DNA from: Bacillota bacterium | GTDB lineage: Bacteria; Bacillota; DULZ01 | DNA length: 64,000 nucleotides | Reading direction: 5' to 3' | Assembly (NCBI GenBank): GCA_050951405.1 | Contig: JBMNIZ010000008.1 | Coordinates: forward strand, 5,986 to 69,985 | Shown: positions 1 through 14,005 of the stretch, one piece after another | How the letters are laid out: every line of letters starts with the position of its first letter | How positions within the stretch are numbered: position 1 is the stretch's first letter | Program-made: the position numbers and the translations under genes | Notes under the pieces: generated by a model | Told to the model about the DNA's origin: nothing | The model's input: only the letters and a program-made list of their open reading frames with translations | Database searches by the model: none

Positions 1-173
1 TTGCTTTTCCTATGATATAATTTCGATAAAAGGGCCGAAAATGCCTGCAATTACTGGCTTTTTAACACTTTTGCCAAAGAATTTTTGCCCACTGCTAACT
101 ATGGACTGTTAGTGAAAATGCAAACCAAGGATCGTCCAAGGTTTGCATTTTCTAAGACTTTGTCTACAGTCTG
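1..173 (-). mobile_element. Truncated second copy (terminal ~170 bp, cut by window edge) of the IS1182-family element that is complete at 46780..48489, in opposite orientation
   Basis: nt 1-110 are ~90% identical to the reverse complement of 46861-46960; nt 113-173 mirror the IS left end (CAGACTGTAGACAAAGTCTTA...GCAAACCTTGG) found at 46780-46840. Confidence 0.6.
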
Positions 174-199
174 AAAGGTTGCCTTGCAGCAACCTTTTT
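174..199. terminator. Bidirectional stem-loop AAAGGTTGC-cttgca-GCAACCTTTTT downstream of the aldehyde oxidoreductase gene, directly abutted by the IS end
   Basis: 9-bp stem with A-run/T-run flanks, immediately 3' of the minus-strand CDS ending at 225. Confidence 0.55.
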
Positions 200-224
200 C
201 CGGTGATGATGCTCATTTATATTC

Positions 225-2999
225 TTAATTTTTTTCCAGGGCCTCTTTGATCCTGGCCGGTGTGGCCGGCAGGGTATAGATGCGCACGCCCACCGCATCG
301 TAGATGGCGTTTAGAATCGCCGGCGTGATAGGCACAGTGGCCACCTCAGATATCCCCTTGGCTCCGTAAGGCCCGGTTGGTTCAGGGTCCTCCACGATCA
401 AGACCTGGTACTCGGGGGTCTCGTCTATTTTAGGCACCCCCAGCTGGCGAAAACTGCGGGCCTTGTGGATTCCCTTTTCCACCGGGTATTCCTCGGAAAG
501 AGCATAGCCCTGGCCCATGGAGCAGCTTCCCTGAATCTGTCCTTCGATTTTTTGGGGGTTGATAGACCTGCCCACATCATGGGCGGCGATTACCTTCAAG
601 AGTTTCACCTGGCCGCTGTCCGGGTCAACCTCAACGATGGCCACTTGGGTTGTATAAGCATAAGCCGGATAGTTCCGGTATTCCTCCTTGGGCACCTTGG
701 CTCTGGCCTCTTTATCCGCCAGGGCATAAGTCTTGGGAGCCACGTAGAAATAATCAGCCCGAATGCTGTCCCCTCGGGAAGATACCTGAGAGGCTAAATC
801 AGCCAAAGAACAAACCAGCTTCCCGTCTTTCCCCCTCACTGCCCCTTCCTGCAGTTCCAGCTGGGCTGGATCAAGCCTGTAAATTTCTCCCGCATAATTC
901 AACAGTTTTTCTTTGAAAATGCGGGCTGCATGATACATGGCATTGCCGCTGATGAGGGTCTGCCTTTCTCCTACGGCACCGCCGTGCCTGGGGGTCAAAG
1001 AAGTATCTCCGGTGATAATCTCTAAAGACTGGGCCGGCAGATTGAGGGTCTCGGCGGCAATTTGAGCCATTGTGGTCCTGATCCCCTGCCCCATATCCAC
1101 TGCCGACACTCTCACCTGTATGCCGCCATCAGGTTTCAGCTCCACTATGGCCCCGGCATCATCCACCTTGCCCTTGCCCGCTCCCACATTTTTAAAGCCG
1201 CTGGCTACCCCTATGCCCAACTTTTTCCTGCTCCCCCGGTACATTTCCTGAAAGCGGGGCAAATCCTTCTCCAGGGCTGCCTTAGCCTGCTTGATGGTTT
1301 CCTTAATGGCCACACTGGCCTTGAGGATCTCACCGGAAGCGGTTTCCGAACCCACATCCAGAGCATTCTTCAGGCGGATGTGGAAACGGTCCATCCCCAA
1401 TTTCAGGGCAATTTCATCCAAAAGGCTCTCGATGGCTACCGCCGCCTGATTAATGCCAAAACCCCGGAATGCACCCGAATTGGCGTTGTTGGTAAAAACC
1501 GCCCAGCCCTCTACCCTGATATTGGGTACCACATAAGGTCCGCAGGCAAAGATACAGGCCTGATCGATGACCCTGGGGCTCAGTCCCGAATAGGGTCCCG
1601 CATCGGACAACAATTTGGCGTCCACAAAAAGCAGCTTGCCTTCTTGATCCGCTCCCACCTGGTAGTCCATGATATAAGGATGGCGCTTGGCACTCATGCG
1701 CATGGACTCTTCCCTGCTCAGGGTGAGCTTCACCGGTTTGCCGGTACAGTATGCTGCCAAAGCCGTCATGTATTCTACCGGGCCGTCGATCTTCCCGCCA
1801 AAAGCGCCCCCCAAAGGCGTAACGATGATTCTGATCCGATCTTCCGGCAAATTCAAAACCGCTTGCAGCCTTTTCTTAATCTCGAAAGGGAACTGGGTGG
1901 GCCCGTATACTGTCAGCACGCCCTTTTCATCCAGAAAACTAACGCTGGATTCAGGCTCCAGGTAAGCATGCTCCACAAAGGGTGTTTCAAAATGACCTTC
2001 CACCACAATGTGTGCCCGGGCCTTGGCCTGCTCAACATCGCCCACCTGATGGACCAAATGCTTGCAAATGTTGCCTTCCGGGTACAATTTGGCGCTGGTC
2101 TCCTGCAAGGCTTCTTGGGGAGTAAAAACTCCAGGGAGAACCTGGTAGCGAACCTTGATCAAATCCACTGCCGCCTGGGCAATCTCCTCTGTTTCTGCCA
2201 CCACCAAAGCTACAGCGTCCCCCAAAAACCTGACTTTCTCCCCGCAGAGAACGGGCTGGTCCGGTTTAATAGTACCAATGCCGTTTTCCCCCGGGATATC
2301 CTTGGCGGTCAACACCGCCGTAACGCCCGGCAGGGCCTGGGCCTCGGTGATGTCTATATCCAATATTTGCGCATGAGGATGTTCCGCCCAGAGCACTTTG
2401 ACGTGTTGGAGGCCTTCCATGTCCAGATCGTCAGCATATTGCAGTTTTCCCGTTACCTTGGCTTCCCCGTCAATATCCGGCAGGGAAGCCCCCAAGCCGC
2501 CTCCTTTTTCCTCCGGATACTGCTTGCCCTCTGCCAGCCGGCCCGCCAGCTGAACCGCTTCGATTATTTTGGTGTAACCGGTGCAGCGGCAGATGTTGTT
2601 CTTTAAGCCCTGCATGATTTGCTCCTGGCTGGGCCTGGGATGTCTGTCCAGTAAAGCCTTTGCCGCCATAATCATCCCCGGGGTGCAAAAACCGCACTGT
2701 ACAGCGCCGGCAGCTAAAAAGGCCTCTTGAATAGGATGGAACTTGCCGTCTGCCGCCAGGCTCTCGATGGTGAGCACGCTTTTACCCTCCATCTGCTTCA
2801 ACGGCAGGAGACAGGACCGTTTGGCCTCCCCGTCCACAATCACCGTACAGGCCCCGCAATGACCGGTACTACAACCGTTTTTGGTCCCCGTAAGCTTCAA
2901 TTCTTCCCGCAGGAAGGAAAGCAGGCTTTGTTTGTCTTTCGCCTTCGCTTCCACAGGCTGCCCATTGACCGTAAACCTGATCACCCTCATGAACCTCAC
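225..2999 (-). CDS. Molybdopterin-dependent aldehyde oxidoreductase, Mop-type (two N-terminal 2Fe-2S domains fused to MoCo-binding domains, no FAD subunit)
   Basis: 924 aa; 2Fe-2S motifs GCSTGHCGACTV and QCGFCTPGMIMAAKAL, CRCTGY; C-terminus GVRIYTLPATP resembles D. gigas MOP GVRIYRLPAYP. Confidence 0.8.
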   Translation of the reverse strand: MRFMRVIRFTVNGQPVEAKAKDKQSLLSFLREELKLTGTKNGCSTGHCGACTVIVDGEAKRSCLLPLKQMEGKSVLTIESLAADGKFHPIQEAFLAAGAVQCGFCTPGMIMAAKALLDRHPRPSQEQIMQGLKNNICRCTGYTKIIEAVQLAGRLAEGKQYPEEKGGGLGASLPDIDGEAKVTGKLQYADDLDMEGLQHVKVLWAEHPHAQILDIDITEAQALPGVTAVLTAKDIPGENGIGTIKPDQPVLCGEKVRFLGDAVALVVAETEEIAQAAVDLIKVRYQVLPGVFTPQEALQETSAKLYPEGNICKHLVHQVGDVEQAKARAHIVVEGHFETPFVEHAYLEPESSVSFLDEKGVLTVYGPTQFPFEIKKRLQAVLNLPEDRIRIIVTPLGGAFGGKIDGPVEYMTALAAYCTGKPVKLTLSREESMRMSAKRHPYIMDYQVGADQEGKLLFVDAKLLSDAGPYSGLSPRVIDQACIFACGPYVVPNIRVEGWAVFTNNANSGAFRGFGINQAAVAIESLLDEIALKLGMDRFHIRLKNALDVGSETASGEILKASVAIKETIKQAKAALEKDLPRFQEMYRGSRKKLGIGVASGFKNVGAGKGKVDDAGAIVELKPDGGIQVRVSAVDMGQGIRTTMAQIAAETLNLPAQSLEIITGDTSLTPRHGGAVGERQTLISGNAMYHAARIFKEKLLNYAGEIYRLDPAQLELQEGAVRGKDGKLVCSLADLASQVSSRGDSIRADYFYVAPKTYALADKEARAKVPKEEYRNYPAYAYTTQVAIVEVDPDSGQVKLLKVIAAHDVGRSINPQKIEGQIQGSCSMGQGYALSEEYPVEKGIHKARSFRQLGVPKIDETPEYQVLIVEDPEPTGPYGAKGISEVATVPITPAILNAIYDAVGVRIYTLPATPARIKEALEKN

Positions 3000-3019
3000 C
3001 AGCCTTTGGTTTTATTACC

Positions 3020-3253
3020 TTAAAAAGGCAACCGGTTTCCCTGATCCTCAACTAACCGATGATATAATTTTTCAATACCCAGCCGGGAAATCCTCCTCAA
3101 GCAGCTTGCCATTTTTGCTGTTATCCCCATGGTTTCCTCCTGTTTTTCCCCGGAAATAACAATACTCTCCTCCGGCGGCAACTTTTTAATTGTCCGCCCA
3201 AAGGAGAGTATTTTCTTCAGTGCAAATGAAATTTTTTTCTGGGCTTTTTCCAT
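3020..3253 (-). CDS. Hypothetical small protein (77 aa), directly abutting upstream flavoprotein gene
   Basis: ORF only; start adjacent to stop of 3254..4093 suggests coupling; no recognisable motif. Confidence 0.25.
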   Translation of the reverse strand: MEKAQKKISFALKKILSFGRTIKKLPPEESIVISGEKQEETMGITAKMASCLRRISRLGIEKLYHRLVEDQGNRLPF

Positions 3254-4093
3254 TTAGTATTCATTGGGAAGCTCTTTCAGCTGGGCCAGGGTAAAAACCG
3301 GCCCATCAAGGCAGACATAGCGGCTCCCCAAGTTACAGCGGCCGCACTTGCCGATACCGCATTTCATCCGCATTTCCAGGGTAGTGACGATTTGTTCCGG
3401 TTGAAAACCCATCTTATCCAGGGATTGGAGCACAAATTTGATCATAATGGGAGGACCGCAGGTTAAAGCGATGGTATTGACCGGGCTGGGATTAAGTTTT
3501 TCCAAAAAAGCCGGCACAAAACCCACATGTCCCTGCCAGTTTTCGTCTCCTGCATCCACGGTCACACTCACCTGGGTATCCTTCACCTTAGGCCAGTTCT
3601 CAAAAAGGTCTTCTTTGAAGCAGAGATCCGCAGGAGAACGGGCCCCGTAAACAATATGCAGCTTGCCGAAATCCTCCCGGTGCTCCACACAATAGTTGAT
3701 CAGAGAACGTACCGGGGCCAATCCGATACCGCCGCCGATAAAGAGAACGTCTTTTCCTTGAAAAAGATCCAGGGGAAAACAATTACCGTAAGGCCCCCGG
3801 ATGCCCACTTCCTGGCCGACTACCGCTTCATGGAGGGCTTCCGTTAAAGTGCCGACCTTTTTGATGGCAAATTCCAGGTGATTTTCGCCCTGGGAAGTAA
3901 CGGAAAACATGGCTTCCCCTACCGGCAGCAAAGAGAGCATGCCCAGCTGTCCCGGCATGGGATGAAAGGGCTTACCCTCATCGGTAGTAATATGAAAGGT
4001 CTTTACATCGGGAGTTTCCTCCACAATTTTGACAATCTTTCCGATCTTCGGCAGTAAGGGATTAGCAGAAGCTTGACCATTTGCCTTAGTCAT
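3254..4093 (-). CDS. FAD/NAD(P)-binding ferredoxin-reductase-type oxidoreductase with C-terminal 2Fe-2S (AsrB / sulfhydrogenase gamma / FloxA-like)
   Basis: 279 aa; GGGIGLAP nucleotide-binding motif; C-terminal CGIGKCGRC cluster motif; overlaps next gene by 8 nt. Confidence 0.7.
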   Translation of the reverse strand: MTKANGQASANPLLPKIGKIVKIVEETPDVKTFHITTDEGKPFHPMPGQLGMLSLLPVGEAMFSVTSQGENHLEFAIKKVGTLTEALHEAVVGQEVGIRGPYGNCFPLDLFQGKDVLFIGGGIGLAPVRSLINYCVEHREDFGKLHIVYGARSPADLCFKEDLFENWPKVKDTQVSVTVDAGDENWQGHVGFVPAFLEKLNPSPVNTIALTCGPPIMIKFVLQSLDKMGFQPEQIVTTLEMRMKCGIGKCGRCNLGSRYVCLDGPVFTLAQLKELPNEY

Positions 4094-5096
4094 GGATGGG
4101 CACCTCCCTTAACTGATTGATCACCCTGGTGATATCAAGGGTAACCGGGCACTTCACCAGGCAACGCCCGCATCCTACACAACCCCACTTCTCATACCTT
4201 TCCGGCATATACTGAAGTTTATGCAGGAAACGCTGGCGGACCCTTTCTTTCTTAGTGGGTCTGGGATTGTGCCCCCCGGCCATTAAAGTATATTCCTTGT
4301 ACATACAGGAGTCATAGCAGCGATACTTTACTCCCTTTTCGCCCCTGTTCCTGTTTAGAATATCAAAACAGTGACAGGTGGGGCAAAGATAAGTGCAAGT
4401 GCCGCAGTTGATGCATTTACGGCAAATCTCCTCCCAAACGGGGTGCTCAAACATTTTCTGCAGCTTTTCCGTTAAACCTTCAACTTCCACCTGCAAGGAG
4501 CATTCTTTCCCTTCAGGGAATTCCTGGGAAGTATCTGCCAGAAGCGATTGAGTAGCCTGGAGCAGCTTTTCCCCTTTTTCGCTCTGGGCTGAGAGAAGAA
4601 AAGCGTCGCCAGTATCAGCCATCATGATATCGGCCTGGGGCGCCCGGCCGGGATCGATTCCCCAAGAACTGCAGAAACAGCTGGGCTCCGGCTGCAGGCA
4701 GCCTAGAGATACCAAAACCGTTTCTTCCCGCTTTTTCTTGTAATAGATATCTTCAAAACCTTTGGCGAGAAAAACGTCATCCAACAATTCTATGGCTTTT
4801 ACGTCACAGGGTCTGATGCCCACAACCACCGTTGGGCCGCCGACACCATCCAGCTCCTGGACAGCAGCCTGAAGCTTCTTGGTTTCATATGCATAAAGCT
4901 CCTCTGTTTGAGGGAAAAATATTTTTTTAGGAGAAATAATAGTATTTTTATCCAGCGCCGGTTCCGTTCCTTCTTCCCAGACGGCAAACTGGGTCAGCCC
5001 ATCATTGTCAACAGGAACATAAACTGTTGCCTGCTTCTTCAGCTCCGCCAAAAATCTCGGCAAATCCTTCTTTTGCAGTTTTTTCATTGATTTCAC
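4086..5096 (-). CDS. Iron-sulfur protein with two 4Fe-4S ferredoxin motifs (AsrA / sulfhydrogenase beta / FloxB-like)
   Basis: 336 aa; CINCGTCTYLCPTCHC and CVGCGRCLVKCP motifs. Confidence 0.65.
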   Translation of the reverse strand: MKSMKKLQKKDLPRFLAELKKQATVYVPVDNDGLTQFAVWEEGTEPALDKNTIISPKKIFFPQTEELYAYETKKLQAAVQELDGVGGPTVVVGIRPCDVKAIELLDDVFLAKGFEDIYYKKKREETVLVSLGCLQPEPSCFCSSWGIDPGRAPQADIMMADTGDAFLLSAQSEKGEKLLQATQSLLADTSQEFPEGKECSLQVEVEGLTEKLQKMFEHPVWEEICRKCINCGTCTYLCPTCHCFDILNRNRGEKGVKYRCYDSCMYKEYTLMAGGHNPRPTKKERVRQRFLHKLQYMPERYEKWGCVGCGRCLVKCPVTLDITRVINQLREVPIHD

Positions 5097-5109
5097 CGCC
5101 TCCTCGACC

Positions 5110-5997
5110 TTACATGAATTCTTCCGGATCTTCGGTTTTATACAGGCCCAGAGGAGGAGTTACCTCCAAATCGAGACCGGCTTCGTACTCGCCAAACAAC
5201 TCGTTGATATCCTTGGCAATCTTGCGGTTTAACAACATGATGGGAATACCGGCTGGACAGACCCTTTCGCACTCGCCGCACTCAGTACATCTTCCCGCCA
5301 CATGAAAGGCCCGGACCAGTCCATAAAACTCATTGCCCCCTCGGTCAACGCTTCTTTCCAGCCAATCCTGACCCTGATCGAAGATACACTCCCGGCAGTT
5401 ACAGGCGGGGCACACATTGCGGCAGGCATAACAGCGAAGACAGCGATCATAATGAGAGGACCAAAACTCATAGCGGCTGTCAGGATCCATTTTTTCGATT
5501 TCCTCTACCCCGGCAAATCGATCCTTTTGTGGGGATGGCTGCACTTCCTCTCCCAACAGCACGTCGTAAATCACCGGATTGGGATGGGTGCAGTAAAGGC
5601 ACTTTTCCTCCAGAGGCAGGTCCTGAATTTTCTCCGGTCCGGCTTCTTTCGCCGCCTGAATACTCTTCATGCCCGGACAGGGAATACCGATCAAATAGAT
5701 TTTATCTCTATCCAGTTGTAAATCCTGCAGCAAACGGTTAACGCCCCGGGCATCACAACCCTTGACAAAAATAGCCGTTTTGCCTTCCTTCTGCCTATAC
5801 TCCATGAGATATTTGGCCAGATTAACCGCACAAAACTCATCCCAGATCAGACAGTCCGTATCTTCCGGTCGGGTAATGAAAACCGGCGTGGAATCATAGA
5901 AAAAAGTGCCCTTTTCCCAACCGATAATCAGATCCACTTCTTTCTTTTTAAGCAACTCTTTGGCCAGCTGCCGCATTTTTTCCGTCACTGACTTCAT
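5110..5997 (-). CDS. FrhB/FdhB-family (coenzyme F420 hydrogenase beta-like) iron-sulfur flavoprotein, FloxC-like
   Basis: 295 aa; CLRCYACRNVCPACNC and CTECGECERVCP motifs; ATGA overlap with mvhD stop. Confidence 0.6.
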   Translation of the reverse strand: MKSVTEKMRQLAKELLKKKEVDLIIGWEKGTFFYDSTPVFITRPEDTDCLIWDEFCAVNLAKYLMEYRQKEGKTAIFVKGCDARGVNRLLQDLQLDRDKIYLIGIPCPGMKSIQAAKEAGPEKIQDLPLEEKCLYCTHPNPVIYDVLLGEEVQPSPQKDRFAGVEEIEKMDPDSRYEFWSSHYDRCLRCYACRNVCPACNCRECIFDQGQDWLERSVDRGGNEFYGLVRAFHVAGRCTECGECERVCPAGIPIMLLNRKIAKDINELFGEYEAGLDLEVTPPLGLYKTEDPEEFM

Positions 5998-6431
5998 TTG
6001 GCATCCCTCAACTTCCTATTGGGTCCCAGAGGCCGGATGCGCTCCGACAAATCCGCGATTACCTGAGCGAATTTCGGTCCCTCTGATCCTGAAACCCAAC
6101 GCACTTCAAATCTTTCAGGATCCAGACCCGTGTACTCCAGCATCCGTTGCATAATCAGATAACGGCGCCGGGTGAAATAATTGCCACTACCATAGTGGCA
6201 GTCACCGGGGTGTCAGCCGGCCACTAAAACTGCATCGGCCCCCCGTTTAAAGGCCCGGAGAACAAATTGGGGATTAACCCGGCCCGAACAGGGGACGCGG
6301 ATGACGCGAACATGAGGAGGATATTGGAGACGATTCAGCCCAGCCAGGTCAGCACCCGCATAAGCGCACCAGTGACAGCAAAAGGCTATTATTTTCGGCT
6401 CCCAATTGGCTCCGTGATTTTCTAGAGACAT
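5994..6431 (-). CDS. mvhD: MvhD-like hydrogenase/heterodisulfide-reductase iron-sulfur subunit, predicted selenoprotein (in-frame TGA at 6213..6215)
   Basis: ORF track stops at TGA after ...AVLVAG. Reading through gives [20 protein letters not shown]..., matching the MvhD GCHPGDCHY motif with Sec in place of the first Cys. The frame then stays open to a TGA at 5994 (ATGA overlap with next gene). Likely start is [22 protein letters not shown] at 6431. Confidence 0.7.
6183..6215 (-). other. UGA-Sec recoding site with candidate SECIS hairpin 13 nt downstream (mRNA GCCACUA-UGG-UAGUGGC)
   Basis: Perfect 7-bp stem and 3-nt loop at the spacing typical of bacterial SECIS elements; palindrome gccactaccatagtggc on + strand 6183..6199. 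Confidence 0.55.
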
Positions 6432-8416
6432 AAAGCTTCCACCTCCGCTAAGATTTGCTGATCGGTAAAGCCTTTGACAGTGATCGCCCCGGACCGGCAG
6501 GCCACATTGCAGGCACCACAACCCTGGCAAAGACCCTTATTGACCGCAGCCACCATTCTTTCCTGCATCTTGCCTGCTACCCTTTCCTGCAAGGGAACCA
6601 GCTCAATGGCTTTGTAAGGGCAGACTCCCACGCAAATGCCGCAGCCGGCACAGATGGCGTTATCAACAGTGGCCACCATGGGGTCGGTGGGCATTTCCGT
6701 TTTGGAAAAGAGGCTGGTCACTTTTACAGCAGCAGCGCTGGCCTGGCTGACCGTATCGGGAATATCCTTCGGCCCCTGACAGGCCCCGGCCAAGAAGACC
6801 CCCGCCGTAAAGGTTTCCACCGGCCTGAGCTTGGGATGGGCTTCCTGGAACCAGCCGTCTTTATCCGTGGAGATGCTGGCCAGCTTGGCCACCTTCTCGA
6901 AACCGGCGGCCGGCACCATGGCAGTAGCCAAAACCACCAGGTCCGCCTCCACTTCCACCGGGCGGCCCAGCAGTGTATCTTCACCTTTGACCACCAGTTT
7001 GCCCTCCCGGGGATAGATTTTGGAAACCCTGACCCCGTAAATACACAGCCCCTTCCTCCACCGTCCTTTCATAGAACTCGTCATAGGCCTTGCCCGGAGT
7101 CCGGACATCCATGTAGAAGACGAAGGCCTGACCGTCGGGAATCTTCTCCAGGACCTGATGGGCGTGTTTCGCCGTATACATGCAGCAGGCCCGGGAACAG
7201 TAGCTCTTCCCTTTGGTCAGATCTCTGGAACCGGCACACTTAATGAAAGACCACTGTTTTCGGTTCCTGCCCGTCGGAAGGACGAATAATCTTCCCTCCC
7301 GTCGGGCCGGACGCACTGGCCATTCTTTCAAACTGCATCCCGCTGATCACATCGGGATACCTGCCGTAACCATATTCACCGTACGCCTCTTCCCAGGCGA
7401 AGAGATCATAACCGGTGGCGACGATGATGGCGCCGAACTTCTCATCAATGATCTCGTCCTGCTGCTCGTAATCAACGGCCCCGGCCGGGCAGAATCTTCT
7501 GGCAGATACCACAACGCCCTCTGGTAAAGAGGCGGCAGTGTTCCTTGTCAATTACCGGCACATTGGGCACGGCCTGGGGAAATGGGAGTGTAAATGGCTT
7601 TCCGCTGGCCCAAACCGCATAGTCAAATTCGCTGGGTACTTTCGCTTGGGCATTTCTCCTGGCAAAGACCGCATCCGGTGCACCTGCTTTCGTCTACCAG
7701 ACGGGCTTTCTTCCTGAATCTTGACTTGGTAAGATTGCCCACATAGCCCCCGATTTCTTCCACTTCGGAGTAGGTTAAAGTTCTAATGTTAGGGTGCTGC
7801 GCCGCAGCAACCATTTTCGGCGTGCTAATTCAGGCGGAGCAGTCCAGGGTCGGGAAGGTCTTATCCAGCCTGACCATATTCCCGCCGATGGTGGGCTCCC
7901 TTTCCACCAGAACCACCTGGTAACCGGCATCAGCCACATCGATGGCCGCCTGCATCCCGGCAATACCGGCGCCGATCACCAAGCGCCCGCCTTTCCACCG
8001 GAATGGTGGTCAGCTCCAGGGGCTCATTTTTCGCCACCTTGGCCACAGCACTGCGCACCAGGTCGATGGCCTTGGCCGTGGCTTTTTCCTTATCTTTGTG
8101 TACCCAGGCACATTGCTCCCGGATATTGGCCATTTCCATGAGGAACTGGTTAATGCCGCCACTTTCACAAGCCTTCCGAAAAGTAGTCTCATGCAAGTCT
8201 CGGGGTGCAGGATGCCACCACCACCCGGTCCAGGTCATGCTCGGCGATGGCCTGTCTTGATCAAGTCCTGGCCCGGTTCCGAACACATATATTGATAATC
8301 GGTGGCAAAGGCCACATCAGGACATTTCCGCCGCTGTCAGCCGCTACTTTTTTCACATCCACCGTGGAGGCAATGTTGGTTCCACAATGACAAACAAAAA
8401 CTCCTACCCGTTTCAC
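6422..8416 (-). pseudogene. hdrA: hdrA (heterodisulfide reductase subunit A). It carries an in-frame TGA at the conserved Cys of the FPTxDCSxC motif (probable Sec) and at least six apparent frameshifts
   Basis: GTG start with AGGAGGG RBS. N-terminus VKRVGVFVCHCGTNIA. Fragments in three frames: [84 protein letters not shown]. Also [28 protein letters not shown]...YCSRACCMY and a C-terminal double ferredoxin. Overall span ~665 codons as expected for HdrA. Confidence 0.75.
7792..7832 (-). other. UGA-Sec codon of hdrA (7830..7832) plus a downstream hairpin with a bulged U (mRNA GGUUGCUGC-GGC-GCAGCACC)
   Basis: TGA aligns with the second Cys of the DCSMCI motif of HdrA. The hairpin lies 17 nt downstream, with an 8-bp stem, a bulged U and a G-rich apical loop, as in bacterial SECIS. 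Confidence 0.5.
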
Positions 8417-8443
8417 GCTTCTTCCCTCCTCGTTGCCGGATGT

Positions 8444-9315
8444 CTAAGCAAGTCCTTTTTCTCTAAAAGAGGCAGCCCGTTCACAAAATGTTTGGGCAGA
8501 CCCTAATTCTTTCGGGCCGTAGCCAAAAGCCAGCCCCATCAATTCCGTAAAGTAGAAGATGGGCAGATCGTACTTCTCCCTGGTAAGCTGCCCTCAGTCC
8601 CTTTCTGCCTCATGTCCAGGTTCATGAAGCACAAGGGGCAGGCCACCGCAATACAATCGGCTCCATTAGCCTTGGCATCAGCAAAAATGTTGCGCAGAAG
8701 AGGTCCCGCCTCCCTGGACAGAGTAGTGGTATGCCCGGCGCCACAACACTCTACCTTGAAGGACCAGTCCACGGGCGCGGCACCCAGCATCTCCATTAGT
8801 CGATCCATGCTCTGCGGGTTTTCCGCATCATCGAAACCCGTAGTTTCCACGGGACGGACCAGCAAACAACCATAATAGCAGGCAACTTTCAAACCTGTTA
8901 AAGGCCTGACCACTTTTTCCTGGATCTGTTCCTGATCCACCCGATTAGCCAGCAAATCCAGCAAGGATAAAGTCTGGTTGGATGCCTCATAATCCATTTC
9001 AATAATGCCCGCCACTTCTTCCTGGCACTCCTTGGAATTTCGTACCGCCAATTCCACTACCCGCATCCTGTTGTAACAGGCTGCACAGGGCACGGCCACA
9101 TCCAGACCTTCTTTTTCCGCCAGGGCCAGGTTTCGAGCCGGCAAAGCAAACCCCAATAACCGGTTGGTGGCATGGGCGGCAGAGGCCCCACAGCAATTCC
9201 AATCGGGTATTTCCCACAACTCCAATCCCAGGTGTTTCGCTACCAGTTTGGTGGAAAGATTGTACTCAACACCTGTAGCCTCAAGAGAACAACCGGGGTA
9301 ATAAGCATATTTCAA
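8444..9315 (-). CDS. hdrB: hdrB (heterodisulfide reductase subunit B, two CCG domains), one apparent frameshift near 8600
   Basis: NCCGASAAH and ECCGAGHTT CCG-domain motifs. The C-terminus continues in another frame as EKYDLPIFYFTELMGLAFGYGPKELG...REKGLA, ending at TAG 8444. Confidence 0.8.
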
Positions 9316-9884
9316 CGCTTTTCACCTCCCGCAGCGCGAACCCTTTCAAAAATACGTTTAACCGCCTTCTGTCCCCCGCTTCTCTTCGGCAGAGGATGAA
9401 CTTTGCCGTTCAGCAAAAGAGGCGGCCCCAAGAGCACATCTTTAAATAATTGCCCTGACTTTAAATTAAAAAAAGCAATCAGCAAAGCTTCCTGTACCCG
9501 CCCGAAATTTTCCACCAGACTTAAAAAGGTGTCGCTGAAGATATCTACGGTTTTTACAGGTACTTTGCCTCGCCTTTTCGCTTCCATCCGCAGGGTCTCC
9601 ATCAGCTTAGGAATATCAATTCCTTTTGGGCAGCGAGCATAACAAGTGGCACAGTGGGCACAAACCCAAATGGATTTCGCTCCCAGTGCCTTTTCTCCCA
9701 GCCCCAACTGCAGCATCCGAATCACCTGATGTGGCGTGTAGTCCATGGCTGCAGACAGAGGGCATCCGGCAGAACACTTGCCGCACTGATAGCAATCCTG
9801 GACATTGACCCCACTGTCTAAACGGACCAGCTCCTTGAAACTCCGGCCCGCAGTTAAAGTGGAAGCAAGTTCCAAGTTTTCCAT
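9312..9884 (-). CDS. hdrC: hdrC (heterodisulfide reductase subunit C, two 4Fe-4S motifs)
   Basis: 190 aa; CYQCGKCSAGCP and CAHCATCYARCP. Confidence 0.85.
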   Translation of the reverse strand: MENLELASTLTAGRSFKELVRLDSGVNVQDCYQCGKCSAGCPLSAAMDYTPHQVIRMLQLGLGEKALGAKSIWVCAHCATCYARCPKGIDIPKLMETLRMEAKRRGKVPVKTVDIFSDTFLSLVENFGRVQEALLIAFFNLKSGQLFKDVLLGPPLLLNGKVHPLPKRSGGQKAVKRIFERVRAAGGEKR

Positions 9885-10111
9885 ACAATCCCCCTCTTTA
9901 CAGCAAAATAAAAGCCATTTGTAAGAAAAAGCGCAAGCTCCTTAAAAAAAATGAAAAAGCCGCCCGGCAATTTTATATATTCGTTAACCTAAGCGAAATT
10001 CCTGCCCCGTCGCATCAAATTTCGCAAAAATACCGCATCTGGATACATCTTCCTTGCTTTCCTTACTTTCAGACAGATCGGGTATATCCGACTAACTCGA
10101 ATGAAGTATAT

Positions 10112-11182
10112 ATGAAAAGACAGATGCCTTTGTCTACAGGAACAAATTGCGGAAGGGGAACCATCGATGCTCTTTCCTTTCTTATCCGGTACCGGCGGAC
10201 TGATCCTTTTCTTTTGCCGGCATGCGCTGGATCAAAAAAGGACTGGACCAGGGCCGGCCGGAGGGGACTGGAAACCGCCATCAGCCTCTACTCACCGCCA
10301 CTCCCCTAGTGGCCACCCTGACCGGTACCGTCATCACCATGCTCTTCCAGAGCAGCAGCGCCGTCACCGTCCTCACCGTGGGTCTGGTCAACTCCGGCCT
10401 CATGACTTTTGTCCAGGGGCTGGGCATCGTCCTGGGCACCAACATCGGCACGACCTTTACCGTCCAGCTGCTGGCTTTTGAGTTCGACTCTCCTGGCACC
10501 CTGGCTGCTGGTGGGCGGGCTTCTGTTACGCAGCATGGTTTACACCGGAATGACCTCTGGCAGGGCAGTAGGGAGAAACCCTCTCCGGCCTGGGACTGGT
10601 CTTTTGCGGCCTCCACCTGTTTCGTCTCTCTTTTGCACCCTCTGCAAAGCCAGCCCTCTTTTCCTGGGCTGGCTCTCTTCTCTGGGAGACAACTACTCTA
10701 TGGCCCTGGTGACCGGCCTAATGGCCACTGCCCTGCTCCAGTCCAGCACCGCCGTCACCGCCGTCACCATCGTCCTGGGCAGCCAGGGGCACCTGACCAC
10801 TGGAGACCGCTATCGCCCTCATGCTGGGATCAAATATCGGCACCTGCTCCACGGCCCTTCTTGCTTCTTTTAACGCAGCTGCCTGGAGGCCCGCCGCATC
10901 GCCATGGCCCACGTAGTCCTCAACGTCCTGGGAGCCATCATCTTCTTTCCCCTGATCGATTTCTTTGCGGACTGCCTGCGATACCTTTCCCCTCTCCTGC
11001 CCCGCCAAATCGCCCACGGCCATACCCTGTTCAACCTGTCATTTCCTCTCTCCTGGTCCTACCCTTTCTTACCCTGCTTTCGCCCGCCTCATCATCTTTT
11101 TGGTACCGGACAAAAAATAATGGCTGCCGGAATGGCCAGCCCCGTCGTGAGTTATTTTCATAGTAGACCCCCATGCCGCTAG
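10112..11182 (+). pseudogene. Na+/phosphate cotransporter (NptA / Na_Pi_cotrans family), split across three frames
   Basis: Fragments MLFQSSSAVTVLTVGLVNSGLMTFVQGLGIVLGTNIGTTFTVQLLAFE, LLQSSTAVTAVTIVLGSQG and HVVLNVLGAIIFFPLIDFFADCL lie in different frames. The 313-aa ORF has a Pro/Arg-rich out-of-frame tail. Confidence 0.55.
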
Positions 11183-11446
11183 CGCGGCACCAGCAGAGCA
11201 TGAAAAACATCCAGGGAGGGGTGGTTATTCCGGCGCAGAGCGACCTTGAGCCGAGCGGCTAACCAAGGTTAGCGAGGCCGAGGGCGGAGGCGGGCCCGAG
11301 GACAGGACGTCCGAGGCCGACCATTGAGGCAAGGATGCCGAATTGGTCGGGAAGCCCGCCGGAGCCAGAGGAAGAGCGCTACCTTGGTCCGCGAGGATCA
11401 CCGGGAGCGGCTGCCGGAATGACCAGCCCCGTCACGAGTTATTTTC
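11117..11446. repeat. Two ~40-bp direct repeats (11117-11158 and 11407-11446, 37/40 identical: GGCTGCCGGAATGRCCAGCCCCGTCRTGAGTTATTTTCA) bracketing a ~250-bp GC-rich segment
   Basis: Direct repeat read from the sequence; the intervening DNA is >65% GC with repeated CCGAGG/GAGGC motifs and small hairpins (GCTAACC-aagg-TTAGC). Confidence 0.6.
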
Positions 11447-11502
11447 AAAGCAGTAACATTTCCTGCAGTCCCATTACGCACAATTTAACCAAAACAGCCA
11501 CT

Positions 11503-12216
11503 TTAAAAAACCACCCGCTGATTGTGCGTATATACATTTAACCGGCCTCCCCGAACGGAACCAACCAGGGTCACTCCCAATTCTTCACCAAGCTGGACAG
11601 ACAAATCGCTGGGGGCGGAGCGGGAAGCCAGGACCGGCACTCCCAACTTGGCCGCCTTGACCATGATTTCCGAAGTACAGCCTGCCGGTGGTTAAGAGCA
11701 GCTTATCCGCCAGAGATATGCCGTCCAGAAAACACCGGCCCAGGATCTTATCGGCAGCATTGTGCCTGCCCACATCTTCCCGGAGAAACAAGATTCTTCT
11801 CGCTGGTGCCAAGAGCGGCGCTGTGGGAGCCCCGGGTCCGCCGGTAAAGTTCACCCATTCTCTGCATTTCTTTCATCAAAGCCAAGATTTCTTTCCCTTT
11901 AACCAGAAGAGAAGAAGTTACGGGCCGGCAGTGGGAAGAATCCGCATAATGTAAAAAGAAGTCCCTTTGCCGCAGCCGGTGGTAATATATCTTTTCAGAA
12001 AGGTCCGCCGAGCCAACAGGGAAGTATGATCCGACTGCACCCAGGCCAATCCCTTCTCCCTGTCCAGCTGCACTCGCCGCAAATGGCCCGATCAGCCAAA
12101 AAACCCTCCGCCACCAAAAAACCTACTGCCAGCTCTTCCTGATCCTGGGGAGTGCATAGAAGAGTGACAATTTCTTCTTCGTTAAAATAAATGGTCAGAG
12201 GTCTTTCGGCGATCAC
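11503..12216 (-). pseudogene. fdhD: fdhD (formate dehydrogenase accessory sulfurtransferase), frameshifted into at least three frames
   Basis: Fragments LTIYFNEEEIVTLLCTPQDQEELAVGFLVAEG, EDVGRHNAADKILG and SEIMVKAAKLGVPVLASRSAP...LGVTLVGSVRGGRLNVYTHN. No formate dehydrogenase catalytic gene nearby. Confidence 0.65.
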
Positions 12217-12394
12217 CTCTCCTGCCAGGGTTTCTTTTTTCTGTGGTTTTTTATTCCCATGGTATCGTAGATAACCTTTTCTGTAAGGCTGGACATCTGT
12301 TCCACCTCAAATAAAAATCCTTTATGGCTTTTCTTTCTATTCTAACTTAAAACAAAACAAAAAGACAAATTCATTCCAGTTTATTTAACGAAAA

Positions 12395-12604
12395 ATGCGC
12401 ACAATAAAAAAGCGGCAGCTTGCTAAGGAGGTTCAATCTTTGGCCAAATTAATGTCCGAAGAACTGCGCTGGGAGTTAGCCAAGGAATTAGGCGTGGACC
12501 ACATCGTGGCCACAGAGGGCTGGGGAGGAGTTCCTTCCCGGGAATGTGGAAATCTGGTGCGCAAAGCTATTGAACTAGCGGAGCGAAGCCTGGTGCAACG
12601 ATAG
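12395..12604 (+). CDS. Small acid-soluble spore protein, alpha/beta-type-like (divergent); start may be the TTG at 12431 behind an AAGGAGG RBS
   Basis: 69 aa; EELRWELAKELGV...PSRECGNLVRKAIELAE resembles the SASP core (EIAxEFGV...TSRANGSVGGEITKRLV); followed by a strong terminator. Confidence 0.45.
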   Translation: MRTIKKRQLAKEVQSLAKLMSEELRWELAKELGVDHIVATEGWGGVPSRECGNLVRKAIELAERSLVQR

Positions 12605-12606
12605 CT

Positions 12607-12640
12607 GCCGAAAAAAGGCCGCTTTCCGGCGGCCTTTTCC
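12607..12640. terminator. Bidirectional rho-independent terminator (AAAAAAGGCCGC-tttccg-GCGGCCTTTTCC) shared by the SASP gene (+) and the MCP / fla-che operon end (-)
   Basis: GC-rich 8-bp stem flanked by A-run and T-run. Confidence 0.7.
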
Positions 12641-12679
12641 CATTATTTTCCTTCTGGCGATAGTCTAAAAAAATCTTCT

Positions 12680-14005
12680 TTAATTTTCTGTCTGCATATG
12701 TTTGACCATATCCATTAAATCCTTGGAAAGATTGGACAGCCTGTTGACATATTCCGGTGCTCCAGATAGTTGGCGGCTATTTCCTCCACGGAAGCTGCCA
12801 GCTCCTGGGTGCTTCCTCCGGTTTGGGCGGCAATGTTTTCGATCTGCGCCATATGCTGAGCCACCTGGCGCCGCCGGCCGCCATTTGCTGGGTAGCATAA
12901 GAGACTTGTTGAATTTCCCGGCCACATCCTCAACGGATTTGATTATAGTTTCAAAAGCTCGCCCCGCCTCGGTCACCACTTGGATACCGCCGGCCGCTTC
13001 CTGGGTCCCCTGTTCCATGGATTCCACCGCTTTTTTCGTATCCTGTTGGATCTGCTGGATCATTTCCGCAATCTGCCCAGCCGCCGCTCCGGCCTGCTCA
13101 GCCAATTTTCTCACCTCTTCCGCCACCACGGCAAATCCCCGTCCTTGCTCTCCCGCCCTGGCGGCTTCAATGGCTGCATTCAAAGCCAGCAGATTGGTCT
13201 GCTCAGCAATGCTGGTGATGGTCTCCACGATTTGTCCAATTTCTATGGATCTTTCACCCAAAAGCCCCACCGTTTGAGAAGAACTGTGGACTGCCTTGCT
13301 GATCACCTTCATCTGCTCAATGGACTTGCTGATGGTCACCCCTCCCTGGGAAGCGATCTCCGCCGTCTCCCGCGAAAGATCGGATACGGCACGGGCGTTG
13401 GCCGCTATCTGCTGGATATCTTCAGACATGCGGCTGATAGTGGCAGAAATATCCTCGATACTGCCGGTCTGGTTTTCCATGCCCAGGGCTACCTGCTGAA
13501 TGGTCTGAGCGATTTGCTCAGTAGACTGGGATGATTGCTCCACATCAGCCTGCAAATTTCCGGCCATTTCCGCCACTTCCGCAGCCACCTCTCTGATTTT
13601 CAAAACAAAAGTCCTGAAGTTCTCCACCATCAAGTTAAAACCCCTGGCCAGGTCCAGCAGCTCATCATTGCTTTTACAGGCAGTTTGTACGGTCAAATCC
13701 CCTTTTTCCGCCCTTTTCATGGCCTTAACCACCTGTCCCACCGGGCCGAGAATGACTACGGACATAATGTAACCTACAAAAATAGAAAAAAGAGTGCCTC
13801 CCGTGCCGGCCACCAGAATATTTCTTTGAAAAATCCTGAAAGCCTGGTCAGCATTGCCGTGCCGGGCTGCCTCTTGCAAAAGAACGGCCACCGTGGGAAA
13901 AGTATAGCCGACGGTAGCTATCCAGATGACAACGGTCACTACTGAAAAGATGAGCACCATTTTCACTTTCAGGCTCAAGCGCATCTTTCCACCTCTTTTG
14001 TTCAT
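12680..14005 (-). CDS. Methyl-accepting chemotaxis protein; C-terminal signalling domain disrupted by apparent frameshifts
   Basis: N-terminal TM helices; highly conserved MCP core [35 protein letters not shown]. The C-terminal continuation ([29 protein letters not shown]) lies in another frame (12715..12933). Confidence 0.8.

Follow-up and report, generated by a model that had tools for sequence, protein, structure and literature searches.

A probable canonical hdrCBA-flxDCBA operon from an uncultured anaerobic-digester Bacillota bacterium, read through an allele-blended assembly tract

We analysed a stretch of 64,000 nucleotides (nt) of an uncultured Bacillota bacterium (assembly GCA_050951405.1, contig JBMNIZ010000008.1, positions 5,986 to 69,985 of the forward strand; hereafter the window), in which a cluster of hdr, mvhD and flx genes followed by a Mop-type molybdoenzyme gene occupies the minus strand between positions 225 and 9884. 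We hold with high confidence that this locus is the canonical hdrCBA-flxDCBA (FlxABCD-HdrABC) operon of uncultured anaerobic-digester Clostridia/Bacillota, that the disruption of its hdrA and hdrB genes is an assembly error and that the molybdoenzyme gene is a lineage-specific addition. In the direction of transcription the order is hdrC, hdrB, hdrA, mvhD (flxD), flxC, flxB, flxA, a spacer open reading frame (ORF) and mop, as seen in the ORF list and the translations; together with the family scans, these bear out the gene content and order that an original prediction had given for this DNA. The seven genes, and the tract that damages two of them, are the following.

9312..9884, minus strand: hdrC, 190 amino acids (aa), intact 2x[4Fe-4S] subunit; Pfam Fer4_8/Fer4_17, NCBIfam CoB_CoM_SS_C (1.5e-20)
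8413..9315, minus strand: hdrB, nominally 903 nt, that is 900 nt plus three inserted bases (8587, 8576, 8504); two CCG domains in the intact allele
6422..8416, minus strand: hdrA, nominally 1995 nt, of which 15 were inserted in 13 events (1980 nt without them); 659 aa in the intact allele
5994..6431, minus strand: flxD, the mvhD homologue, 145 aa, intact save an in-frame TGA; Pfam FlpD PF02662 (5.9e-55), VhuD (2.5e-41)
5110..5997, minus strand: flxC, 295 aa, FrhB/FdhB-like N-terminal domain plus a ferredoxin domain with two CX2CX2CX3C motifs
4086..5096, minus strand: flxB, 336 aa from the GTG at 5096, or 333 aa from the ATG at 5087 according to other gene callers; Pfam Fer4_22
3254..4093, minus strand: flxA, 279 aa; Pfam NAD_binding_1, DHODB_Fe-S_bind ([2Fe-2S], C-terminal) and, weakly, FAD_binding_6
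6773..8799, no strand: artefact tract in which two alleles are blended by base priority

The junctions are tight, with stop/start overlaps of TTGA at hdrC/hdrB and ATGA at mvhD/flxC and overlaps of 8 nt at flxB/flxA and 10 nt at hdrA/mvhD, the ATGA and 8-nt overlaps being as previously described. A promoter and terminator scan performed no better on this DNA than on shuffled sequence and gave no operon boundaries.

We compared the locus with 80 related loci, retrieved from one-genome-per-species collections by a profile of the 295-aa FlxC, and ran all nine window proteins by tblastn. The loci span Moorellales, Peptococcaceae, Syntrophomonadaceae, Lachnospiraceae/Oscillospiraceae, Coriobacteriia/Eggerthellaceae and metagenome-assembled genomes (MAGs) of Desulfovibrio, and the best match to the source organism among the GTDB loci has 71% identity. 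Results showed that the order hdrC-hdrB-hdrA-mvhD-flxC-flxB-flxA, on a single strand, is kept in nearly all of the 80 loci, and in practically every one whose length allows an order to be seen. The cluster is also present in the Desulfovibrio/Desulfovibrionaceae MAG loci (L029, L030) and in the Syntrophomonas loci, and the closest named isolate for FlxC is Zhaonella formicivorans, with 69% identity.

The operon is thus of an already described kind, and neither its order nor its selenocysteine codons are peculiar. Its order had been singled out as reversed; we find no such difference, as hdrCBA-flxDCBA is itself the published operon name (PMC12125255) as well as the order of nearly all the related loci, and the clusters of Syntrophomonas have been named flxABCD-hdrABC (PMC6687939). 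FlxABCD-HdrABC is widespread in anaerobes (PMC10084766, PMC6687939, PMC4759654), its Flx subunits being homologues of subunits of the soluble hydrogenase of Pyrococcus without the catalytic subunit (PMC10084766), and Flx-Hdr is required for ethanol oxidation by D. vulgaris (PMC10084766, PMC6687939). For that complex it has been proposed that NADH oxidation is coupled to reducing ferredoxin and DsrC through flavin-based bifurcation, with the reverse reaction in fermentation (PMC10084766, PMC6687939, PMC4759654).

Set beside the FlxABCD-HdrABC loci of Desulfovibrio (Nitratidesulfovibrio) vulgaris Hildenborough, Bilophila wadsworthia and Syntrophomonas, the window has the same seven-gene order on one strand, a FlxA with flavin adenine dinucleotide (FAD)/NAD(P) and [2Fe-2S] sites, iron-sulfur (FeS) proteins FlxB and FlxC, a FlxD homologous to MvhD, a flavin/FeS HdrA, a CCG-domain HdrB and a 2x[4Fe-4S] HdrC, and it likewise lacks a hydrogenase catalytic subunit. 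It differs in its host, here uncultured digester Clostridia/Bacillota, and in what follows flxA: in Desulfovibrio the flx-hdr genes adjoin adh and are tied to ethanol/acetaldehyde metabolism (PMC10084766), whereas here adh is not adjacent and a Mop-type molybdoenzyme gene and an insertion sequence (IS) come next. The suggested resemblance to Flx(Flox)ABCD-HdrABC, as an NAD(P)H-linked and presumably electron-bifurcating module, is supported.

Two variations were seen among the related loci. In eight of them (L030, L038, L041, L042, L052, L062, L065, L072) a weak HdrB-like match of 33-38% identity lies upstream of hdrC and not between hdrC and hdrA, which may be a variant arrangement or another CCG protein. 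About ten Syntrophomonadaceae loci (L037, L043, L044, L045, L046, L048, L054, L063 and others) have after flxA a same-strand protein of about 895 aa whose N-terminal half, judged by eye, looks like a class-III aminotransferase; it is a different lineage-specific neighbour of hdrCBA-flxDCBA.

In the window itself hdrB and hdrA are damaged. Three 1-nt insertions shorten hdrB, whose ORF stops early, at 8539, and gives 258 aa, against 299 aa in other assemblies. In hdrA, three-frame translation and tblastn showed that 13 insertion events, spread from 8416 to about 7030, shift the HdrA-like peptide among all three frames. The earlier description of hdrA as one frame broken by its UGA alone does not hold, and the frameshifts of hdrB had been overlooked. 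By exact-protein look-up we recovered public contigs of the source organism, namely L002 (ENA MEGAHIT), L007 (JGI), L008 (NCBI MAG GCA_012512425.1) and L006 (Logan). The first three, which are independent assemblies, match the window at 100% identity everywhere except in 8799..6773, HdrC being 100% identical to the L002 and L007 copies, and they carry an intact 299-aa HdrB and a 659-aa HdrA interrupted solely by its selenocysteine TGA. HdrA of L007 and L008 matches NCBIfam HdrA2 over its full length (residues 3-657, 1.3e-253), and in the allele of these two contigs HdrA, HdrB (with both CCG domains) and HdrC are full length. Exact-protein look-ups of the truncated 258-aa HdrB and of the C-terminal ORF of HdrA found no match, and a window-specific 38-mer was absent from JGI metagenome contigs.

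Compared with this clean allele, the tract has about 110-119 substitutions and 18 inserted nucleotides in 16 events, none of them in a homopolymer, and no deletion. All of the 119 substitutions, read in minus-strand orientation, go up in the series A<T<C<G and none goes down. Third codon positions, which make up 30% of the A/T sites, hold 74 of the 108 substitutions that fall in codons, and the G+C content of the tract is raised to 0.57. Such a third-position bias is unlike random error, so that the substitutions derive from a real second allele.

A search with the intact HdrA protein led to a 95%-identical fragment (P0230) and to contig L090 of a short-read anaerobic-digester assembly, which spans window positions 8780..6120, is intact and shows 326 differences from the clean allele without gaps. 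The two alleles differ at 266 sites of the tract, and at 246 of them the window has whichever of the two bases stands higher in A<T<C<G, taken 105 times from L090 and 141 times from the clean allele; a further 16 sites carry the lower base beside an inserted base, and 4 do not fit the rule. The priority extends to polymorphisms that leave G+C unchanged, with T taken at 10 of 10 A/T sites and G at 15 of 17 C/G sites. All 16 insertion events are interleaved adjacent bases of single-nucleotide polymorphisms (SNPs) of both alleles, as where CTTGG of the clean allele and GCTGG of L090 become GCTTGG. At all 60 polymorphic sites downstream of 6773 the window is identical to the clean allele. The tract 8799..6773 is a deterministic consensus or merging artefact and not a pseudogene: the consensus was built there from two diverged alleles, one base being taken by a fixed priority and at times both, whence the frameshifts. 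The raised G+C and all the frameshifts are explained by this blend, and the damage to hdrB and hdrA is consequently no argument against the organism's locus being a member of the Flx-Hdr family.

Read at face value, the 16 frameshifting insertion events and the premature hdrB stop would make hdrA and hdrB true pseudogenes, or targets of local hypermutation or GC-biased gene conversion, and the module dead in this organism; a second public long contig (L001/L091) is likewise scrambled over hdrA-mvhD. We consider this extremely unlikely. Each base of the tract was chosen by its identity on a fixed strand regardless of its allele of origin, and we know of no biological process that chooses bases in this way. 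The insertions interleave bases of two intact alleles, and in the flanks the identity to intact versions is 100%, leaving no time for neutral decay. A second tract lying outside hdr, in a gene of the opposite strand, shows the same upward bias in the same reverse-complement orientation of the window (81 up, 7 down, measured against the clean allele only), and the homopolymer deletions found nearby are ordinary sequencing errors. A diversity-generating retroelement, hypermutation of adenine-deaminase type, GC-biased gene conversion and neutral pseudogene decay were each rejected on the fixed-strand priority, which holds even at A/T and C/G sites, on the interleaved insertions and on the identical flanks. 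L001 was rejected as second parent, since none of the insertions occur in it and it agrees with the window variant at no more than 25 of the 119 sites.

The three genes at 3254..5997 could also be read not as Flx but as an anaerobic sulfite reductase of AsrAB type, or as the half of a sulfhydrogenase that transfers electrons. FlxA resembles the gamma subunit of P. furiosus sulfhydrogenase I (PDB 9nez_C, 1.7e-51) and FlxB its beta subunit (9nez_B, 1.5e-48), and the NCBIfam matches comprise AsrB (E 5.6e-63), HydB/HydG (sulfhydrogenase 1 beta/gamma) and, for FlxB, ShyB (sulfhydrogenase 2 beta, 1.9e-59) and AsrA (6.3e-54). Every one of these NCBIfam scores nonetheless falls under its curated cut-off, AsrA reaching 183.4 bits of the 323.15 called for and AsrB 212.5 of 288.6. 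In the ORF inventory no asrC is adjacent, the next genes being the spacer ORF and mop, and neither the inventory nor the family scans revealed a gene for a hydrogenase large or small (catalytic) subunit in the cluster. The check for an AsrABC set with a nearby asrC, which the original prediction had named as able to refute it, came out in its favour: the genes are not AsrABC, because their scores are below cut-off and asrC is absent. Furthermore, flxCBA is fixed within the conserved seven-gene cluster with mvhD and hdrABC across the 80 loci, and Pyrococcus-hydrogenase-like subunits without the catalytic subunit are what the literature describes as Flx (PMC10084766). We give the sulfite reductase or sulfhydrogenase reading almost no credence. 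What FlxB and FlxA share with sulfhydrogenase I beta/gamma (9NEZ) and AsrAB is homology and the same NAD(P)H-FAD-[2Fe-2S]-[4Fe-4S] electron-transfer pair; they differ in having neither a hydrogenase nor an AsrC catalytic partner and in being wired to MvhD-HdrABC.

FlxC requires a separate comment. It has two invariant CX2CX2CX3C motifs, and its nearest relatives are FdhB and ElpB, both by sequence (7bkb_E, 8rvu_E, 9t1s_M) and by Foldseek of its AlphaFold model (E 1.9e-13, TMq 0.64), in which confidence is high for the N-terminal 170 residues and the model of the FeS domain is poor. The profile alignment covers only residues of about 26-135 and 250-381 of FdhB/ElpB, so that a middle part of about 115 residues is missing from FlxC. 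This part would hold the FAD/F420 site in FdhB/ElpB, and FlxC is most likely an FeS-only connector. The gene had been called an FrhB-like FeS flavoprotein, of which the FrhB/FdhB-like N-terminal part and the ferredoxin part stand and the label of flavoprotein is unsupported. In ElpB, FAD is reduced by F420H2 and the electrons then pass down a [4Fe-4S] chain, in an arm that runs from ElpB through ElpC (MvhD) to the FAD of HdrA (PMC12350162).

The methanogen Hdr supercomplexes (Fdh-Hdr-Fmd, 7BKB; Elp-Hdr, 8RVU) are close to the module in parts. FlxC is nearest to FdhB/ElpB in sequence and fold, FlxD is the counterpart of MvhD/ElpC, HdrABC shows homology along its full length, and the same path from a donor arm through the MvhD [2Fe-2S] cluster to HdrA's bifurcating FAD is probable. 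In contrast to those complexes, the donor here would be NAD(P)H, through FlxA and FlxB, and not F420H2, formate or H2; the disulfide would not be that of coenzymes M and B (CoM-S-S-CoB), and FlxC is without the middle part of FdhB/ElpB.

Homology to the solved complexes (9nez, 7bkb and 8rvu) leads us to infer the path from NAD(P)H to the HdrA FAD, and bifurcation, substrates and direction are likewise suggested by analogy. A hydride of NAD(P)H would be taken up by the FAD of FlxA, the presumed entry site, from which single electrons would pass to the [2Fe-2S] cluster of FlxA, then by way of the FlxB and FlxC FeS clusters to the [2Fe-2S] cluster of FlxD. Like MvhD/ElpC in the methanogen complexes Mvh-Hdr, Fdh-Hdr and Elp-Hdr, FlxD would dock on HdrA and deliver electrons to the bifurcating FAD. 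From there one electron would go uphill to ferredoxin by way of the ferredoxin domains of HdrA, and the other downhill, with HdrC as relay, to the non-cubane clusters in the CCG domains of HdrB, where a disulfide (DsrC in Desulfovibrio) would be reduced. The complex may also operate in reverse.

Several points weigh against the picture of a canonical, NAD(P)H-driven bifurcating operon with a blended tract and an added molybdoenzyme. We know of no experimental bifurcation by any Flx-Hdr complex, the function resting on the genetics of D. vulgaris and on analogy. The donor is given as NAD(P)H, which may be NADH or NADPH alike. The Flx assignment leans on MAG loci as proxies (L029, L030 and Syntrophomonas) rather than on the D. 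vulgaris DVU2399-2404 proteins. No terminator-like site was seen from flxA to mop, so that the two may be co-transcribed, in a scan that did no better than on shuffled sequence. Finally, L090 may or may not be the exact second parent; 4 SNP sites and a few window-unique bases break the priority rule.

HdrA and FlxD are probably selenoproteins, with a UGA at a cysteine position, and the codons concerned are these.

7830..7832, minus strand: in-frame TGA of hdrA in the context C-S-A-U, probable selenocysteine codon; hairpin 20-41 nt downstream
6213..6215, minus strand: in-frame TGA of mvhD in the context VAG-U-HPGDCHY, probable selenocysteine codon; 8-bp hairpin at 6200..6182, beginning 12 nt downstream

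The HdrA site is residue 194 of the intact 659-aa allele, and a hairpin follows both in-frame TGA codons, 20 nt after the UGA in hdrA and 12 nt after it in mvhD. Among the related loci the HdrA site is TGA in 31 of 66 and TGT or TGC in the other 35; at the MvhD site the counts are 36 and 40 of 76, and the window thus shares its UGA codons in HdrA and FlxD with about half of its relatives. HdrA and FrhD/MvhD are among the commonest selenoprotein families of bacteria (PMC1794560), and HdrA (CxxU) and FrhD/MvhD are both listed as such families (PMC9312934, PMC1794560). Selenocysteine in HdrA and MvhD is real yet ordinary: the selenocysteine versions proposed earlier are upheld by the TGA codons in both frames and their hairpins, and fail as a distinguishing trait.

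Beyond flxA the window contains the spacer ORF, the molybdoenzyme gene and the end of an IS element.

3020..3253, minus strand: spacer with a 77-aa ORF, 234 nt between flxA and mop
225..2999, minus strand: Mop-type molybdenum hydroxylase, 924 aa from 2999; likely start at the ATG at 2990 (921 aa), which other gene callers use, after GGTGAGG
1..199, no strand: left end of the IS element, a DDE transposase element with 41-nt terminal inverted repeats, starting 26 nt past the mop stop codon

A small ORF followed by a Mop-type molybdoenzyme had been expected after flxA, and both are present, the ORF from 3253 to 3020 and mop down to 225. The 77-aa ORF has no family match in the Pfam and NCBIfam scans and no homologue beyond the source organism, and it is probably non-coding. 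An Rfam scan of 1..12800 at E<=1 gave no match, hence no riboswitch (for example, of the molybdenum cofactor, Moco) in the flxA-mop spacer. One Mop homologue is preceded by a 45-aa ORF, which is unrelated to the 77-aa ORF.

The molybdoenzyme has the Mop-type architecture, with Fer2 and Fer2_2 (2x[2Fe-2S]), Ald_Xan_dh_C and the Moco domains MoCoBD_1 and MoCoBD_2, and with no FAD_binding_5, in Pfam. Its best PDB matches, end to end, are the aldehyde oxidoreductases of Desulfovibrio (1dgj, 3e-128; 1sij, 1.3e-125), and the glutamate of its GISEV motif aligns with that of the GVGEM segment of MOP, presumably the catalytic Glu869. Like MOP/MOD of D. gigas and D. desulfuricans (1VLB, 1SIJ, 1DGJ), it is a single chain of about 910-920 aa with two [2Fe-2S] clusters and molybdopterin and without FAD domain. 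The relationship to MOP/MOD is only moderately close (432.9 bits), however, and the model of selenium-dependent xanthine dehydrogenase (TIGR03311, 760.8 bits against a cut-off of 830.45, with the best stretch at model positions 2-680 of 848) scores higher than that of aldehyde oxidoreductase (NF045668, 610 bits against 1100), both remaining below cut-off. Close homologues, of 55-69% identity, are all unnamed proteins of uncultured organisms, and an aldehyde substrate is not established by this architecture.

The molybdoenzyme might nevertheless be a functional partner, which oxidises an aldehyde or another substrate and lets the electrons enter Flx-Hdr through the FeS chain of FlxB/FlxC, with bifurcation or confurcation. 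The gene lies on the same strand after a 260-nt spacer free of terminator-like sites, its position next to flxA is kept in five contigs of the source organism, and the link of Flx-Hdr with ethanol/acetaldehyde metabolism and adh in Desulfovibrio (PMC10084766) would suit such a role. On the other hand, tblastn placed no Mop homologue nearer than 10 kb to flx-hdr in any of the 80 related loci. In the closest relatives (L011-L013, L015-L017, L020, L022) flxA is directly followed by a PHP-domain gene, a Na/Ca-exchanger gene or both, and the same two genes sit beyond mop and the transposase in the source organism. The three Mop homologues that we examined as the closest (64-69% identity) occur in three contexts that are unrelated and have neither flx nor hdr nearby, and Mop misses both NCBIfam equivalog cut-offs. 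Dedicated coupling of Mop with Flx-Hdr is unlikely because of this comparative evidence, and we rate the partnership as distinctly improbable; the earlier idea that the linkage feeds aldehyde electrons into the module is correspondingly weak. That an acquired Mop is co-transcribed with hdrCBA-flxDCBA and passes electrons of an aldehyde (or of an N-heterocycle) to the Flx FeS chain in this digester lineage alone we regard as very unlikely; if true, a generic NADH-linked bifurcating complex would have been turned into a substrate-specific one by Mop. We read mop instead as a gene added in this lineage between flxA and the conserved PHP and Na/Ca-exchanger neighbours, with the IS following; it is not ancestral to the operon.

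The IS element encodes a DDE_Tnp_1/DUF772 transposase of 505 aa (L091 12792-14543) and has terminal inverted repeats of 41 nt. Its palindromic repeat end, which is seen in the window past mop, can be mistaken for a terminator.

The practical lesson outweighs the biology, which is that of one more hdrCBA-flxDCBA operon with a non-conserved molybdoenzyme neighbour. A blend of this type, in which an assembler or polisher combines two diverged alleles base by base, mimics a pseudogene, hypermutation or biased gene conversion by its false frameshifts, its raised G+C and its third-position pattern resembling AT->GC change. Annotators of the window contig or of JGI Ga0534105_01100 should read hdrA, hdrB and fdhD as intact genes damaged at the consensus step.

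Other damaged stretches were observed in the window and in public contigs. Compared with the clean contigs L007 and L001, the second tract, 12917..10004, has seven 1-nt homopolymer deletions (12917..11952), typical of long-read errors in an assembly that is error-prone. Its part at 11853..10004 has mostly upward substitutions (those 81 up and 7 down lie in 10000..11125) and 35 inserted bases, and an extra GC-rich segment of 313 nt at 11122..11434 has weak homology to L013 and L022. This tract breaks up fdhD and alters a Na/Pi cotransporter gene. Contig L001/L091 (129 kb, JGI 3300053716 Ga0534105_01100) has flanks identical to the window and a tract of its own that covers hdrA and mvhD and reaches into the start of flxC (L001 ~5680-8190), about 20% divergent, with repeated frame changes, a third-position bias and both insertions and deletions. 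This tract, too, is probably a consensus of mixed alleles at the same conserved gene. The short contig L004 (JGI 3300062814) differs at 33 positions in the equivalent of window 6216-7152. These cluster in mvhD and at the 3' end of hdrA, and L004 may represent either a third allele or one more merged consensus.

Upstream of the operon, from 12680 to about 16350, annotations of neighbouring contigs give a methyl-accepting chemotaxis protein (MCP), CheC/FliM, FliM and a response regulator. From there to 64000 the window holds dense minus-strand ORFs, a region left unannotated in which nothing related to the redox operon was seen.

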